A DNA stretch of 50,703 nt from an uncultured Nitrospinota bacterium. GTDB lineage: Bacteria > Nitrospinota > Nitrospinia > Nitrospinales > VA-1. Both the position numbers and the translations under genes were made by a program. Location of the stretch: assembly GCA_905612265.1 (NCBI GenBank), contig CAJQRI010000002.1, positions 1 through 50,703 on the forward strand, in the 5' to 3' direction. The notes under the pieces were generated by a model. That model was not told the origin of the DNA. It saw only the letters and a program-made list of their open reading frames with translations, and searched no databases. The first letter of the stretch is position 1, and each line of letters opens with the position of its first letter. Shown here piece by piece: positions 45,351 through 50,464 of this stretch.

Positions 45351-46106
45351 CTATAACAGAACGGGCTTGAAGTCGGAGAGTTTAATGACGTACCTTTGTA
45401 AAATATGGTCATCTTGCTTGAGAGTCTGATCAATGCGGTGAACCCACCAAATCCCCTTAGACTTTCTATAGGTATAGCGAGTGACTTCCAAATATTCTCC
45501 CTCATCCACCTCGAACCGGGTACGAGTTTCAGAGATAGCGGGTTTTCCCTCCAGCTTTAAATAGCTGAACTCTCCCTCTATATATTGTGGTGACCGCGAT
45601 TGTTTAAACCGTAATTTTCGGACGACCCACTCTTTGGCATCGACCAGAAGTTTGTATTCTTGATCAGAGGATACTTGTGTTAGACCTACAACAAACTTAT
45701 TTTTTTTCGTTGCATGAACCTTGCCGGCAAAGCTGGAGAATTTTTGCTGCAGTGTAAGAGGAATGATTGGCTCACTAAAAGGGCTGATATGCAGACTCAA
45801 TTCCTGAACCCGGTCTTCAGAAAAATGTTCCTGACCTTCAGCCAACTCAAAACGGCCCAGTTGGGAGCCCCCCTTCCATATAAAATTAAAGTCAGGATTA
45901 CGCAGGAATTTTCCGGAGCCGGAAACCACATCTAACTGCTCCCACTGAACTCGAACGGAAAGGCTTTTCAAGCCTTGCTTCTGAGGGTAATAGTAGTTTT
46001 GGTCTAACTTCAAAAGAACTGAGTCGAGGGATAGGCCCCAGGCAGAACTTATGAGAATTCCCACAAGTAATGGAGCAAAAACAAAAGAGATTTTTAATCG
46101 AGGCAT
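45351..46106 (-). CDS. Exported beta-rich protein of unknown function (possibly LolA-like fold)
   Basis: Signal peptide ending SSAWG from ATG 46106; strand-like alternating pattern; downstream of the TlpA gene. Confidence 0.65.
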   Translation of the reverse strand: MPRLKISFVFAPLLVGILISSAWGLSLDSVLLKLDQNYYYPQKQGLKSLSVRVQWEQLDVVSGSGKFLRNPDFNFIWKGGSQLGRFELAEGQEHFSEDRVQELSLHISPFSEPIIPLTLQQKFSSFAGKVHATKKNKFVVGLTQVSSDQEYKLLVDAKEWVVRKLRFKQSRSPQYIEGEFSYLKLEGKPAISETRTRFEVDEGEYLEVTRYTYRKSKGIWWVHRIDQTLKQDDHILQRYVIKLSDFKPVLL

Positions 46107-46122
46107 GTAATCAGTTTTGGAT

Positions 46123-46701
46123 CTAATCTTTGAGTATTGACACACGATCTACCAACGGTAAGTCATCATTGGAGTCATTGCTCTTCAGAGACAGAAACAA
46201 GTCCTGCGAATCTAAACTATCCCAGGATCTAGCCCCTGAAGCATAACCTCGGATTTTGCCCTCGCCATCAATCAGGTAGCTGGTAGGAATTCCCCTGACA
46301 TGATATTGCTTTCTAACTTTTTGGTTCTGATCCAGAAGCACTGGAAAGGTCAAATTGTTTTTCTCTACGTATTTTTGAATACGATCCTCGTTCCACCGAT
46401 CAATGGAAACAGCCAGCACTTCTACTCCATCTTTCCCAAGAGACGAGTACAGGTTTTGCATAGAAGTCATTTCTTCCCTACAAGCAGCACACCAAGTAGC
46501 CCAGAAGTTCAACAAAACAACTTTCCCGTTAAAATCAGAAAGCATGACATCTTGGCCTTTAAGGTTCTTCACCACAAAATCGGGTGCAGGCTGAGAAGTT
46601 TTTGGAGGCACCACTCCCACCTTGTTAAAAAAGTCATGCTCTGCATAGGCTTTTACTGGCAACCACACCAACATCATTATTAAAACCAGTATTGACTTCA
46701 T
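46123..46701 (-). CDS. TlpA/ResA-family periplasmic thiol-disulfide oxidoreductase
   Basis: APDF, GKVVLLNFWATWCAACREE, GIPTSYLID; GAGG RBS. Confidence 0.9.
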   Translation of the reverse strand: MKSILVLIMMLVWLPVKAYAEHDFFNKVGVVPPKTSQPAPDFVVKNLKGQDVMLSDFNGKVVLLNFWATWCAACREEMTSMQNLYSSLGKDGVEVLAVSIDRWNEDRIQKYVEKNNLTFPVLLDQNQKVRKQYHVRGIPTSYLIDGEGKIRGYASGARSWDSLDSQDLFLSLKSNDSNDDLPLVDRVSILKD

Positions 46702-46711
46702 GAGTAGTTCC

Positions 46712-46984
46712 TCAATTTGCGTTCCTGTGTAAGTAATCTCGAATCAGCTCTTTTTCCTGATTAGGGAATTTAATATTTTTTTGTTTCATAAAACCATCCA
46801 TCATCACCAAGAGGAAGTCCCATTGCTCCGGCGTATGCCTTGTTACACCTGGCAAACCGTGGCACTGGGTGCATCGTTCTTGATAGAGCCTTCCGCCGAG
46901 ACTCTCCGGTTCAGGAATCATTTGAGTCCCGGCACAAGATATTACGAATAAAGACACCAAAATCATTGGCAATACTTTATACAT
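46712..46984 (-). CDS. Monoheme cytochrome c lipoprotein
   Basis: Lipobox VISC; LYQERCTQCH; W...L..M distal Met region. Confidence 0.82.
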   Translation of the reverse strand: MYKVLPMILVSLFVISCAGTQMIPEPESLGGRLYQERCTQCHGLPGVTRHTPEQWDFLLVMMDGFMKQKNIKFPNQEKELIRDYLHRNAN

Positions 46985-46986
46985 TG

Positions 46987-48117
46987 CTAGAAGCCAAGTG
47001 ATTTAGGCGGACTGAACCCTTTATAACGCATGCTTTTCTTTGTAGGAACTTCAGCGTAATAAGTGAACTGAACCATCCAGTTATCCTGCAATTGTGGACC
47101 ATTCAAGTCCTGATGAATCGGCACGCTTGCCGTCAGTTCCATAACATGCAAAGGAAGAGGTTGGAACTGAACTCCCAAACCAAAATGCAACTTATGTCCG
47201 CCATAATTGTCCGGATCGAACAAGGGGCTAATAAGGTTATTAGCCGTGCTCAATGCATTATGACCGGCCCCCAAAACTCTTACATCATAAGCCTCATCGC
47301 TGAATTTTCCTTCATACCAACCATTCAACTGAGCATGAACAACCACCTTGTCATGAACCTGTTTCATAGCATAAAAATCATAACGGAGCTCTTGCGCCCG
47401 GCGATAGCCCTGTTCATTATCATAGATATGGCCTTCTAACTGGGTATTGAACCCCCACCAGAAAGGATCGCGTGAGCCTTGATAGGTTAAACCAATGATG
47501 GGGTCAACAGTGCCGCTCCCCAGTTGCATCTTAAATGGGAGAAGAGATCCATTGAACGTATCATTCGTGTGATTACTAAACTTCTTGTTGATCGATCCCG
47601 AAGGCAGGGACAAACCAAACAAAACTGATACCTGGTTTGTCGGAACCAGGTTATCATCAGCATAGGCACGATATTTAGCAAGTAAGGTAACATCTCCAAC
47701 ACCCCCCGATGTCATCGTGAAATCATTTCCATTATTTAAATTCATACGCATAGTATTTTCGATATAACTGGTCATTCCCATCACAGCAAAATCATCTGAG
47801 AAAGAATATGCGGCTCCAATCATAGTCATATACATCTGCATGTTAGTGGGAAGAGCAGGAAAATTGGTTCCGTTTGCAGAACCAATAAGATCGTCATTAC
47901 TAATCTCATCCGTACCGTCACGAAGGGGGCCCATCTCCATAATCATCTGACTAAATTTGAAACGGAACTCCTTGGGCTCAGGGATACCGCCGCCGAAAAT
48001 ATTCAGAGGCATATTTCCACCACAATGGGCACAGCAGAGCCCAATATAAGCTTGGGCTACAGATACCCAAGACAACATGATAAAGCTAAGAAAAAATACA
48101 ACTTTGTTTTTGAGCAT
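46987..48117 (-). CDS. Outer-membrane beta-barrel transporter with Cys/His/Met-rich N-terminal region (putative metal uptake)
   Basis: AGGAG RBS; signal peptide AQA; CCAHCGGNMP; MIMEM..RDGT, PTNMQMYMTM; barrel motifs G.GD, GLSLPSG, MQLGSGTVD, P..QDLNGPQL. Confidence 0.7.
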   Translation of the reverse strand: MLKNKVVFFLSFIMLSWVSVAQAYIGLCCAHCGGNMPLNIFGGGIPEPKEFRFKFSQMIMEMGPLRDGTDEISNDDLIGSANGTNFPALPTNMQMYMTMIGAAYSFSDDFAVMGMTSYIENTMRMNLNNGNDFTMTSGGVGDVTLLAKYRAYADDNLVPTNQVSVLFGLSLPSGSINKKFSNHTNDTFNGSLLPFKMQLGSGTVDPIIGLTYQGSRDPFWWGFNTQLEGHIYDNEQGYRRAQELRYDFYAMKQVHDKVVVHAQLNGWYEGKFSDEAYDVRVLGAGHNALSTANNLISPLFDPDNYGGHKLHFGLGVQFQPLPLHVMELTASVPIHQDLNGPQLQDNWMVQFTYYAEVPTKKSMRYKGFSPPKSLGF

Positions 48118-48242
48118 GAAACTCCTCTAGCTGAAATAAAGTTAAAATAGCAAATGGAGATAGATGGAGTGACAGACAAACAGTTTAATAAAGCTCACGC
48201 GAGCGCACTACCGCTTTTACTTAAGCCTGTCAGAAGTTCTCA
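48117..48242 (-). promoter_or_regulatory. SD-sequestering intercistronic RNA structure
   Basis: Minus strand UG(A)GAACUUCU (48242-48232) pairs with AGGAGUUUCA (48126-48117); inner stem UGACAGGC (48232-48225)/GUCUGUCA (48177-48170). Confidence 0.55.
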
Positions 48243-48668
48243 GATGAATTGTGGGGGATGATCGATAGATCGAGGGTAGTTCTGACTCAGGGTATCCGTA
48301 TGTGTTTTTATTCCCGAATAAAATTGTAACGGAAAGAAGCCATCTTGATTGATATCATTAAATAAAATTTTGGCTCTAGATGAAGCCGAAGAGTTAGCAG
48401 TTCCTGTTGAAGAACCACATTCAGATCTAATAACTCCCCTGGATTTTTTCTCATTCTGGTCTTTATGCGGACATGGTGTGTTTAATAAATGCTGGTGCAT
48501 TTTCAAAACACAATGTAACGGCCTAATTTTCTGGATTTCATCAAAGGGAGACACCACATCTGCATGGTGATGATGTAAAGACCCGGCCTGCGCTAACGAA
48601 GCGCTAAAAAAGACAACACAAAATATAAGTAAGTCACTTAAAATTCGGATTTTTGGTCGAAAATTCAT
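48240..48668 (-). CDS. Secreted His/Cys-rich upstream ORF with C-terminal HPP motif (candidate regulatory arrest peptide)
   Basis: Signal peptide SLAQA; HHHH, LHC..MHQH..CPH, EC; C-terminus YPRSIDHPPQFI. Confidence 0.7.
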   Translation of the reverse strand: MNFRPKIRILSDLLIFCVVFFSASLAQAGSLHHHHADVVSPFDEIQKIRPLHCVLKMHQHLLNTPCPHKDQNEKKSRGVIRSECGSSTGTANSSASSRAKILFNDINQDGFFPLQFYSGIKTHTDTLSQNYPRSIDHPPQFI

Positions 48669-48937
48669 TAGCGTATTACAGTTATCATTTTAAAACTAAG
48701 TCCATCGATTATGTTTATTTTAACAACTTTTGACTTAAAAATTCAAGTTTATTGCAACAAGAAAGCTCTTACCACACTATCTATAACTCAAATCCAGTTA
48801 AACCAACAACACTTAACACTTGATTTTAAAACAACACATCTAAGTAGATAGAATAAGAAACTTTTTATTCCACCCTGATCACAAATTCTCCATATGGTTT
48901 GTTTTATTTACGCCTGTTTGCTATTCTTACGATTAAT

Positions 48938-49660
48938 ATGGAAACACCTAAAAGAGAGCCCCTGCTAAGGGAATTAAAAGATTATCTCATCCACTTAAAA
49001 GACGTGGGATATACAGAAATCCCTTGTGAGGCAGAATTACTTGTAAATTTCCAACAGGGGACGACAAAACCTTCTCAATCACCCAACGAAATGGCTAAAA
49101 ATAAATCTCTGACTGCAGTTCAAAAAGAGCTGGGCGACTGCACCCGCTGTAAACTTTCAGGAACAAGAAAGAATATCGTCTTCGGATCGGGAAATCCAAA
49201 TGCCGACCTTGTCTTTGTGGGTGAAGGGCCCGGTGCCGATGAGGACGAGCAAGGTCTCCCTTTCATAGGTCGGGCAGGAAAAAAGCTGACAGAGATCATT
49301 GAAAAAGGTATGGGGCTGAATCGGGAAAAAGATACCTATATCTGTAACATCGTCAAGTGTCGTCCACCTGGCAACCGCGACCCGGAAGCGGAGGAAATTG
49401 AAGCCTGCAATCCCTTTCTCATCCAACAATTAAAAGCGATCAAACCCAAAGTCATTGTCGCTCTGGGCAAACCCGCATCTTCCACACTTCTCGGAAGGTC
49501 CGTGCCGATCACCAAAGAACGTGGCACCTGGCATGAATATGCAGGTATAAAGTTGATGCTCACTCTTCACCCCTCCTACCTGATTCGGTTCTACACTCTG
49601 GAAAACCGTAAGGCCGTGCATGAAGACATGAAAAAAGTGCTGAAAGAGCTAAAGAAATGA
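48938..49660 (+). CDS. Uracil-DNA glycosylase family 4 (Fe-S)
   Basis: CTRCKL, VFGSGN, GEGPG, PFIGRAG, NIVKCRPP, HPS motifs; start ATG 48938. Confidence 0.92.
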   Translation: METPKREPLLRELKDYLIHLKDVGYTEIPCEAELLVNFQQGTTKPSQSPNEMAKNKSLTAVQKELGDCTRCKLSGTRKNIVFGSGNPNADLVFVGEGPGADEDEQGLPFIGRAGKKLTEIIEKGMGLNREKDTYICNIVKCRPPGNRDPEAEEIEACNPFLIQQLKAIKPKVIVALGKPASSTLLGRSVPITKERGTWHEYAGIKLMLTLHPSYLIRFYTLENRKAVHEDMKKVLKELKK

Positions 49661-49966: not shown

Positions 49967-50464
49967 TTAAAGCATTTTTTTAATATAAGTCACCAATTGG
50001 TCAGCACCAACAGCCGGAACCCGGGCGTTCAAAACACCCTTTTGATCAATGATTAAAACGGTTGGCATTTCTCTTTGCGAATATGATTTATAAACCCCTT
50101 TCACAGGATCGAACAAATAAGGGAACTCTACTTTCTCCGGGAACTTACTGAGATACTGCGCAACCGCTTCCTTAGAATCACCATTCGTATTGATCCCCAA
50201 CACCACCACTTGATCCTCACTCATCTGCTTTCTAACTTTATTGAACTCCATGGCCTGATTCATACAAGGAACACATATATGGAACATACCGATCACAACC
50301 ACCTTCCCTTTAAAATCGGACAACGCCACTTGCTTATCATTCATGTTTTTCAAAGAAAATTCAGGAGCCTGTTCTCCTGGAGAAAGTGCCCCTGCAAAAG
50401 CGGGGACCACACCTAAAATCATAATAATTAATGAAAGAAATATTTTTTGCATTACACGCTCCAT
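49967..50464 (-). CDS. Exported redoxin (TlpA/AhpC-TSA family)
   Basis: Signal peptide PAFA; APEFSL, LSDFKGKVVV, CVPC, PT.LIIDQKG. Confidence 0.87.
   Translation of the reverse strand: MERVMQKIFLSLIIMILGVVPAFAGALSPGEQAPEFSLKNMNDKQVALSDFKGKVVVIGMFHICVPCMNQAMEFNKVRKQMSEDQVVVLGINTNGDSKEAVAQYLSKFPEKVEFPYLFDPVKGVYKSYSQREMPTVLIIDQKGVLNARVPAVGADQLVTYIKKML

Follow-up and report, generated by a model that had tools for sequence, protein, structure and literature searches.

Organization of the leader and barrel genes

The DNA analysed here (the window) is a stretch of 50,703 nucleotides from an uncultured Nitrospinota bacterium (assembly GCA_905612265.1, contig CAJQRI010000002.1, positions 1 to 50,703). 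On its minus strand, a small open reading frame (ORF) encoding 142 amino acids (48240-48668, stop codon included) stands directly ahead of a gene for an outer-membrane channel, called the barrel below, and this ORF, a putative regulatory leader peptide, is the subject of the present study. [quoted passage not shown]

The N-terminus of the leader resembles a signal peptide (MNFRPKIRILSDLLIFCVVFFSASLAQA, followed by G), its mature part contains 10 His and 3 Cys residues, and its C-terminus reads IDHPPQFI, with the HPP codons at 48260-48252 and the stop codon at 48242-48240, three codons later. A spacer of 122 nt separates this stop from the ATG of the barrel gene (48117). The literal description in the sequence-only reading (a 142-aa ORF, the His and Cys counts, HPP, the 122-nt spacer and two RNA stems) is found in full in the sequence. 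No Pfam or NCBIfam family matched the leader when the window ORF and its family members were searched. The parts of the leader are as follows.

48585-48668, minus strand: signal peptide, residues 1-28, with a K/R N-region, a hydrophobic core and an AQA site
48417-48575, minus strand: putative sensor region, residues 32-84, with HHHH, VSPFD, LHCxL, HxH, PCPH and ECG
48276-48416, minus strand: low-complexity spacer, residues 85-131, free in sequence and fixed in length, with an AlphaFold2 predicted local distance difference test score (pLDDT) of 52-69
48249-48275, minus strand: C-terminal motif PRSIDHPPQ, residues 132-140, with the PP codons at 48252-48257
48240-48242, minus strand: leader stop codon, three codons past PP

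The AlphaFold model of the leader, built on an alignment of 102 sequences, has a predicted template modelling score (pTM) of 0.24 and forms helices only at residues 4-22, the signal peptide, and 51-55; a globular fold is not predicted for this protein.

Conservation of the leader family

A word-based search returned 27 homologues of the leader at 39-97% identity, and a profile made from 22 homologues and run against 1.84 billion representative proteins matched 117 at E<=1e-3, nearly all of them 130-150 aa long. Profile searches place the family in 89 of 120 Nitrospinota genomes, including 50 of the 57 high-quality ones, at one to six copies per genome; the window's own assembly, which is 57% complete, contains one copy. 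The six loci that come from named genomes all belong to Nitrospinota metagenome-assembled genomes, and the named cluster members (four named clusters among ten examined) are all annotated as 'hypothetical protein' of Nitrospina, Nitrospinaceae or Candidatus Nitronauta.

Over 102 aligned members, whose mean column identity is 22%, residues C53, C66, C84 and P138 are invariant, and P41, F42, H52, L55, H58, P67 and P139 are kept in at least 90%. The three invariant Cys residues lie in the local motifs LHC, PCPH and (D/E)CG at spacings of 11-14 and 17-21 residues, and the His/Cys conservation anticipated in the sequence-only reading is borne out by these residues. The signal peptide that it had described is likewise conserved: by a crude rule that asks for K/R, a hydrophobic core and a small-x-small site, in this order and ahead of the His run, 91 of the 102 members carry one, and in an alignment of 22 sequences (A1) S24, A26 and G29 are invariant with Q27 and A28 at 90% or more. 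The stretch from C84 to P138 is poorly conserved and contains 15.6% Ser, and its length is 51-56 residues overall and 52-55 in 100 of the 102 members.

The family C-terminus follows the pattern [ILV][DE][HPR]PP[QRK], that is, [DE]-x-P-P-[QRK]-x-x-stop. Exactly three residues follow the last PP in 109 of 141 proteins, four in 10, two in 5 and five in 2, and the remaining 15 are mostly fragments together with one repeat-made false positive; both the terminal x-P-P and its distance to the stop, as the sequence-only reading had expected, are conserved. Among 22 sequences I135, P138, P139 and Q140 are invariant. At codons 135, 138 and 139 the amino acid is constant in 21 orthologues while three synonymous codons are used at each position, and codons 136, 137 and 140 behave similarly. 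Constancy of the peptide with variation of synonymous codons indicates that selection acts here on the peptide and not on the RNA. By these comparisons the leader is a real conserved gene under peptide-level selection.

Two further observations concern the end of the leader. For Arg133 (codon at 48270-48272), directly ahead of the motif, 19 of 21 orthologues use CGA, in contrast to the free variation of the other motif codons. In one orthologue (L019:2409-2460) a 1-nt deletion, as judged against its relatives, has removed the T from the usual TGA stop, and its leader is therefore three codons longer and ends at the UGA of the 5' arm of the conserved hairpin described below; natural variation and an assembly error are both conceivable.

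RNA elements between the leader and the barrel gene

The following elements were considered in the spacer and at its borders.

48170-48232, minus strand: conserved hairpin, base formed by UGACAGGC (48232-48225) with GUCUGUCA (48177-48170)
48193-48204, minus strand: inner stem of the hairpin, GCUC (48204-48201) with GAGC (48196-48193), 92.6% paired
48232-48242, minus strand: arm taken for an anti-Shine-Dalgarno (anti-SD) sequence in the sequence-only reading, the stop codon plus 8 nt; the consensus register differs
48129-48169, minus strand: G-poor, pyrimidine-rich stretch, predicted to be unstructured
48111-48126, minus strand: translation start region of the barrel gene, SD AGGAG at 48126-48122 and ATG at 48117-48115

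RNAalifold applied to seven sequences paired the leader stop codon and the next three bases with the UG of the barrel AUG plus UUCA. This six-pair stop:start helix is 96.1% paired in 22 sequences, and one of its pairs is A-U in 15 sequences and G-C in 4, the G-C occurring in two separate lineages. In the consensus register the window pairs UGAG (48242-48239) with CUCA (48114-48111), at the second codon of the barrel gene. The three-helix structure is 93.1% paired in 22 orthologues, as compared with 29-46% when it is slid, and carries 7 double-change pairs against 2.2 +/- 1.1 in shuffles (1/500), with the count for helix 3 lowered by a MAFFT alignment (A5) that misplaces the shorter inner hairpin of the window clade. 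Single-sequence folds extend the stop:start helix to the last three codons of the leader and codons 3-7 of the barrel gene, an extension found in 17 of 22 minimum-energy structures (dot-brackets read by eye), and the unpaired probability of the AUG is at most 0.2 in 14 of 22 orthologues. In 16 of 22 orthologues the leader end pairs with positions -4 to +22 of the barrel gene at -9.2 to -16.5 kcal/mol (z <= -2.6); among about 120 windows of the upstream ORF, the terminal one ranks first in 7 of 26 loci and falls within the top 5% in 16 of them. Cognate arms average -12.17 kcal/mol and non-cognate arms -9.26 kcal/mol, a difference of 2.9 in favour of the cognate ones that was reached in 0 of 20,000 permutations; the sequences are related and not independent, so that the shuffle and permutation figures overstate the significance. 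The conserved long-range contact predicted from these comparisons is with the start-codon region of the barrel gene (-4 to +22) and not with the SD, and it is weak in the window. Between the window clade and its nearest relatives, changes have weakened the start-codon pairing and strengthened the SD pairing, which, speculatively, may amount to a shift of register. In the spacers of TonB-receptor paralogues (L031, L032, L033, L042, L043, L049 and L051) a motif close to UCCCAAAAUAAUUU recurs about 15-25 nt past the stop, and barrel-type spacers lack it.

The base of the hairpin (8 bp) is paired in 91.5% of cells over 22 orthologous spacers, and four of its pairs have changed on both sides, as in L006 (G-C to A-U) and L025 (A-U to U-A). 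The 8-bp stem that had been said to loop out the 122-nt spacer is therefore present, conserved and covarying, but it encloses about 47 nt and not the whole spacer. Contigs from RNA libraries of two studies carry six extra bases behind 48192, within the inner hairpin, as do the relatives of the window; the window lineage thus has the shorter inner stem, of 4 bp with a tetraloop. No Rfam family matched at E<=1 within 47950-48900.

The sequence-only reading had assigned the switch to a pairing between the stop region and the SD. The complement does exist, in that UGAGAACUUCU (48242-48232) is able to form a duplex with AGGAGUUUCA (48126-48117) that includes a bulged G and a G-U pair. The duplex is worth -8.2 kcal/mol and ranks 81st among 481 windows of 16 nt from the same mRNA placed against the SD region, which is within chance. 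Perfect pairing (10/10) is confined to the window clade (3 rows) and decays in more distant orthologues, to 7-9/10 with several G-U pairs in 10 rows and to 5-7/10 in the other 9. We therefore rejected the anti-SD:SD helix as a conserved switch. The fold of the region, which had been put forward for inspection, is ordinary as well: 48100-48275 folds no better than shuffled sequences (z = -0.20; 82 of 200 shuffles at least as stable).

Transcription signals, transcripts and factors

The 41-nt stretch from the hairpin to the SD contains 5.3% G, 51% T and 21.5% C over 22 orthologues, as against 22.7% G on the whole strand, a composition that fits a single-stranded landing site for ribosomes or Rho. 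One promoter-like feature was found upstream of the leader.

48717-48746, minus strand: sigma-70-like match TTGAAT-18-TAAAAT with TG, a consensus match only

Four such sites occur in the region and 5.1 are expected, so that this match is a lead and not evidence. Within the 122-nt spacer no sigma-70-like match was found, in a scan that was no richer than shuffles and in a phylum whose promoters may differ.

The leader is covered by contigs from marine metatranscriptome libraries of four studies, and one RNA-library contig of 1008 nt bridges the barrel gene (47303), the spacer and the leader (48304). Such contigs do not give transcript ends or levels, may include DNA carry-over, and are uninformative where they leave parts uncovered. 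EF-P and Rho are both encoded in the genome of the window and in 4/4 relatives checked.

Downstream genes and genomic setting

The leader is followed by a syntenic row of genes.

46987-48117, minus strand: outer-membrane channel (barrel), 376 aa, mature N-terminus YIGLCCAHCGGNMPLN, PF13557 at E 6.4e-9
46712-46984, minus strand: small CxxCH protein
46123-46701, minus strand: ResA/TlpA-like thiol-disulfide oxidoreductase
45351-46145, minus strand: protein without a family, 264 aa
45003-45317, minus strand: protein without a family, 104 aa

The barrel scores 36.6 bits against PF13557 (cut-off 22), and its AlphaFold2 model is a beta-barrel with pTM 0.74 whose best fold match is the COG4313 channel 4rl8 (E 2.5e-12, template modelling score 0.75 on the target). 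The Pfam match and the 12-strand barrel fold place it in COG4313/PF13557; a sequence search of the PDB with the barrel was empty at E<=1. Its mature N-terminus YIGLCCAHCGGNMPLN (window 48040-48087, in the region of residues 11-26) is near-invariant even in paralogues with about 50% overall identity, and is a Cys/His cluster that opens a COG4313-like channel, in a part of the model with low AlphaFold confidence (residues 14-43, pLDDT < 50).

The order of leader and barrel operon is kept in 6/6 genome loci. Of 43 distinct family copies whose loci were fetched, a sample biased by two scans with window-orthologue patterns and a third that took the 30 best matches, 38 stand ahead of outer-membrane transporters: 24 precede a CCAHCGG barrel, 13 a TonB-dependent receptor with a Plug domain and 1 another PF13557 barrel. 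Two copies lie at contig ends, and the other three are taken up below.

Several loci depart from this arrangement. At L039 a paralogous leader ending in LLDPPPRFS is followed by an IS200-type transposase (PF01797, E 2.2e-15) and not by a transporter. At L054 (G074:C1, about 911551-914964) an orthologous leader and its spacer are intact, including the hairpin and the stop:start pairing, while the frame past the ATG does not continue into a CCAHCGG barrel and the next long ORF begins 344 nt downstream; here the barrel gene may have been lost or replaced. L026 and L029 carry, between the leader and a TonB-dependent receptor gene, an extra short ORF with a strong SD of its own (AAGGAGGA) and Cys-rich first residues (MLVSDMAVCDQH...AECFYCD in L026). 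L056 (G012:C1:33000-38500) holds two family members 2 kb apart, the first (IKPPPRFL) followed by a protein of 143 aa and a CxxCH protein of 178 aa, the second (VDPPPKLS) by a TonB-dependent receptor of 783 aa, and judging from the neighbours of the first copy the leader therefore also heads operons that do not start with an outer-membrane protein. In the window, two genes for periplasmic thiol-disulfide oxidoreductases of the AhpC/TSA-Redoxin type flank the locus, one within the operon (46123-46701) and one at 49967-50464, beyond a divergently transcribed uracil-DNA glycosylase gene (48899-49660).

Relation to known arrest leaders

CruR (Bp2923) from Bordetella pertussis, a DUF2946 (PF11162) protein, has 145 residues, is predicted to be exported and is poorly structured; its RAPP motif occupies residues 139-142, the CXXC-RAPP spacing of 45 is kept within 1-2 residues, and it heads a TonB-dependent transporter operon with a 162-nt spacer and acts via Rho (PMC9426467). 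Its arrest in vitro occurs with the third RAPP codon in the P site and the fourth in the A site (PMC12992588). CutF from Rhodobacter capsulatus stalls at PPP during co-translational export when copper binds its periplasmic CXXXC (10.1101/2022.11.11.516240; 10.1101/2025.02.05.636593).

The Nitrospinota leader resembles CruR in its size (CruR being about 145 aa), predicted export and poor structure, in having a Cys-containing motif at a conserved spacing from a C-terminal x-x-P-P with exactly three residues after PP, in its position as the first gene of an outer-membrane transporter operon (TonB-dependent receptors follow 13 of 43 copies), and in its long spacer (122 nt, compared with 162 nt). 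The spacing between the Cys motif and PP is 52-55 residues in 100 of 102 members, as compared with 45 +/- 1-2 in CruR. It differs from CruR in lacking CXXC, in place of which HC, CPH and CG provide three separate invariant Cys residues and His, and in carrying D-H-P-P or D-P-P-P instead of R-A-P-P at the end of a ruler of about 54 rather than 45 residues; CruR belongs to another phylum, is Rho-dependent, and its signal peptide is dispensable. The likeness to CutF lies in a sensor motif whose distance from PP would let it reach the periplasm while the ribosome pauses, in RNA structure that joins the leader end to the start region of the next gene, and in paralogues that carry PPP: the window has IDHPP and paralogues LDPPP, so that the CutF-type PPP occurs in many paralogues and not in the window. 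Four rule-based filters for CutF-like proteins (10.1101/2022.11.11.516240) also describe the window leader, with its 142 aa, PP at 138-139, signal-peptide-like N-terminus and barrel gene 122 nt downstream on the same strand. Unlike the leader family, CutF controls a multicopper oxidase and is induced to stall by copper, and its stem-loop shields the SD, whereas the predicted contact of the leader family involves the start codon and first codons and spans about 120 nt. Neither CXXC (CruR) nor CXXXC (CutF) was found in the leader family. With SecM and the RAPP-like peptides it shares an exported leader, a C-terminal Pro-containing arrest site (putative here) a few codons before the stop and a controlled next gene; in those peptides, which lack a metal motif and serve as monitors of Sec or YidC, a pulling force presumably ends the pause (PMC10987492).

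The sequence-only reading had supposed a family distinct from DUF2946, and the searches agree with it. PF11162 (gathering score 23.7 bits) matched 0 of 22 sequences at E<=10 and 0 of 102 at E<=1, and none of 120 Nitrospinota genomes scored above its cut-off; it did match 5 of 7 RAPPA-type proteins of the L007 group, which served as positive control. In profile-profile comparisons, which covered one short DUF2946 subfamily seeded by the RAPPA-ending L007 ORF, hhalign gave 14% for the 102-sequence alignment (A3) against seven sequences (A4) and 13% against 66 RAPP-ending relatives (A6), a few of them annotated DUF2946, with the signal peptide alone aligned; when the 22-sequence alignment A1 was compared with the L007 ORF alone, the match was confined to HHHHADVV and FHHHNDGV, with a probability of 3.7%. 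On these negative comparisons the family is not a detectable member of DUF2946. By language-model features in the ESM Atlas the nearest named cluster is CzcI (PF28244), a small periplasmic protein encoded upstream of czcCBA (score 0.95, 137/256 shared), a likeness that is a lead only, since it comes without a supporting alignment or E-value and no Pfam match recurs among the 102 members. CzcI itself is listed among the CutF-like proteins, as one without a C-terminal proline motif (10.1101/2022.11.11.516240). A full-text literature search returned no paper that joins 'Nitrospin' with CutF-like, CruR or arrest peptide. The L007 ORF (L007:1297-1698, G005) is a short Nitrospinota ORF with HHH/HPDCPIC that ends in RAPPA, scores 21.3 bits against the DUF2946 cut-off of 23.7, and lies upstream of a 418-aa signal-peptide protein without a family; it has 87 relatives, mostly of 87 aa, some annotated DUF2946 in Geobacter.

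Proposed mode of action and alternatives

We propose, as the probable function, that the leader is a cis-acting regulatory leader of the CutF/CruR type from a separate, Nitrospinota-wide family. The reading as a leader peptide is well supported at the level of sequence comparison by selection on the peptide, the fixed PP-stop distance, the fixed-length spacer, the absence of a predicted fold and the position before transporter genes. What the sequence-only reading had said of an arrest leader holds in its CutF/CruR-like anatomy and in the conservation that it expected, and is not supported in the specific anti-SD switch. Export, stalling, ligand, direction of control and output (translation initiation or transcription read-through) are all proposals.

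By established ribosome dimensions, a ribosome whose P site holds codon 138 would shield some 12-15 nt further downstream, which takes in codons 139-142 as far as the stop. In the proposed mechanism the nascent leader would be exported through Sec, and its His/Cys region (residues 32-84) would reach the periplasm as the ribosome arrives at D-H-P-P-Q, about 54 residues further on. The slow peptide bond between Pro138 and Pro139 would pause the ribosome, which would then cover codons 138-142 up to the stop and with them, in most orthologues, the 5' arm of the stop:start helix; with this arm covered, the channel start region would stay accessible and the operon would be switched on. If the exported part bound a metal or formed a disulfide, the pulling force would change and with it the length of the pause; the direction that we favour is one in which the ligand ends the pause, so that an uptake system would be under negative feedback, as in CruR. 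The footprint of a ribosome paused at PP matches the 5' arm of the extended helix, and a fixed count of three codons after PP would therefore be expected if the footprint must end at a defined RNA element. The hairpin would lie beyond a ribosome paused at PP and at the leading edge of a terminating one. As to the ligand, copper has the precedent, and the oxidoreductase together with the Cys/His cluster of the barrel would fit a thiophilic metal or a redox signal. On a wider view, put forward tentatively although we find it quite possible, the leaders would form a transmembrane nascent-chain sensor family of the Nitrospinota's own, with a His/three-Cys head, a ruler of about 54 residues and a [DE]-x-P-P-[QRK]-x-x-stop arrest module, and with no detectable DUF2946 homology. 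It would gate outer-membrane channels and TonB-dependent receptors one to six times per genome through a new RNA read-out of about 120 nt, in which the last three codons and stop of the leader meet the transporter gene's start codon and opening codons, so that leader tail and transporter head would be co-evolving as RNA.

Several findings weigh against this proposal. The RAPP-like (RQH) arrest motif is given as (R/Q/H)(A/G/D)(P/G/S)(P/G) in PMC10987492, and D-H-P-P and H-P-P-Q deviate from it at the first or second position. With EF-P present, D-H-P-P-Q would be a putative stall site of uncertain strength. The hairpin begins 9 nt past the stop, out of melting reach for a ribosome paused at PP, and the anti-SD duplex, as described above, is at chance level. 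The stop:start pairing is weak precisely in the window clade, which retains only UGAG:CUCA and a weak distal stretch (-5.5 kcal/mol, z -0.7); in the window 27 of 121 internal windows pair as well or better and the cognate pair ranks 9th of 15. The pairing is absent in four paralogous barrel loci (L034, L038, L047 and L050), and its statistics come from related sequences. Given a 250-nt downstream target, the leader end does no better than internal windows (median -15.1 vs -15.1) and is the best in 0 of 45 loci, and the strong duplexes of TonB paralogues (e.g. -19.1 in L046) therefore carry no weight alone. Finally, 3 of the 43 family copies stand ahead of other genes, encoding an IS200-type transposase, a DsrE-like protein and a protein without known function.

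The same sensor could instead have a transcriptional output as in CruR, with a paused or slowly terminating ribosome keeping Rho off the G-poor spacer, relief of the pause leading to Rho termination before the barrel gene, and the hairpin marking or stabilising the resulting short transcript. We consider this rather unlikely. The 41-nt stretch is indeed depleted in G (5.3% vs 22.7%) and pyrimidine-rich in 22/22 orthologues, Rho is encoded, and CruR with its 162-nt spacer sets a precedent (PMC9426467), but the stretch measures only about 40 nt and is rich in U, not in C (C 21.5%), and the covarying stop:start pairing would be superfluous. The RNA libraries speak both ways: leader contigs are deeper than barrel contigs in 4/4 RNA runs and one high-depth contig ends at 48160, just beyond the hairpin, yet contig depth is unable to rank genes, so that the difference is merely a hint, the contig ends of two runs disagree (48160 vs 48214), and one contig spans the spacer.

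Two further accounts were considered. That the leader product is a stable accessory protein which binds metal in the periplasm and works in trans, for instance in metal transfer to or from the channel or TonB receptors, with PP as a docking or processing signal, would agree with its invariant Cys and His, with its place beside outer-membrane transporter genes (38 of 43 copies), with the barrel's own invariant Cys/His cluster CCAHCGG at the mature N-terminus and with the abundance of leader RNA among metatranscriptome contigs. It is nonetheless improbable in view of the absence of a predicted fold (pTM 0.24), a fixed-length spacer of free sequence that makes up about a third of the mature part, an exact PP-to-stop count that a docking motif does not require, and covariation at the RNA level of the last two leader residues with barrel codons 3-5. 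Plain translational coupling with no regulated pause, in which the stop:start pairing ties barrel translation to leader translation and PP is unrelated, accounts for the conserved and covarying helix, which any terminating ribosome would open; it leaves unexplained why the IDHPPQ peptide is conserved amid synonymous variation and why the PP-stop distance and the 52-55-residue ruler are fixed across paralogues with unrelated spacers, and the helix it relies on has little strength in the window clade and is missing from 4 paralogous barrel loci, which makes this account very improbable.

To our knowledge, extracytoplasmic metal sensing by a nascent, exported stalling peptide has been described only between 2022 and 2025, for two DUF2946 proteins of Proteobacteria. 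If the cis-acting arrest leader proposed here is real, the same logic would exist in an unrelated protein family of a different phylum, and the differences in Pro motif, sensor and ruler length would argue for a general principle that arose more than once. The natural variation in ruler, motif and stop:start pairing over about 100 sequences would serve as a ready-made mutant series, and a family now listed as 'hypothetical protein' in databases would gain an annotation. Nitrospinota are globally abundant marine nitrite oxidisers, and the leader would offer a handle on the control of trace-metal uptake in these hard-to-grow organisms.

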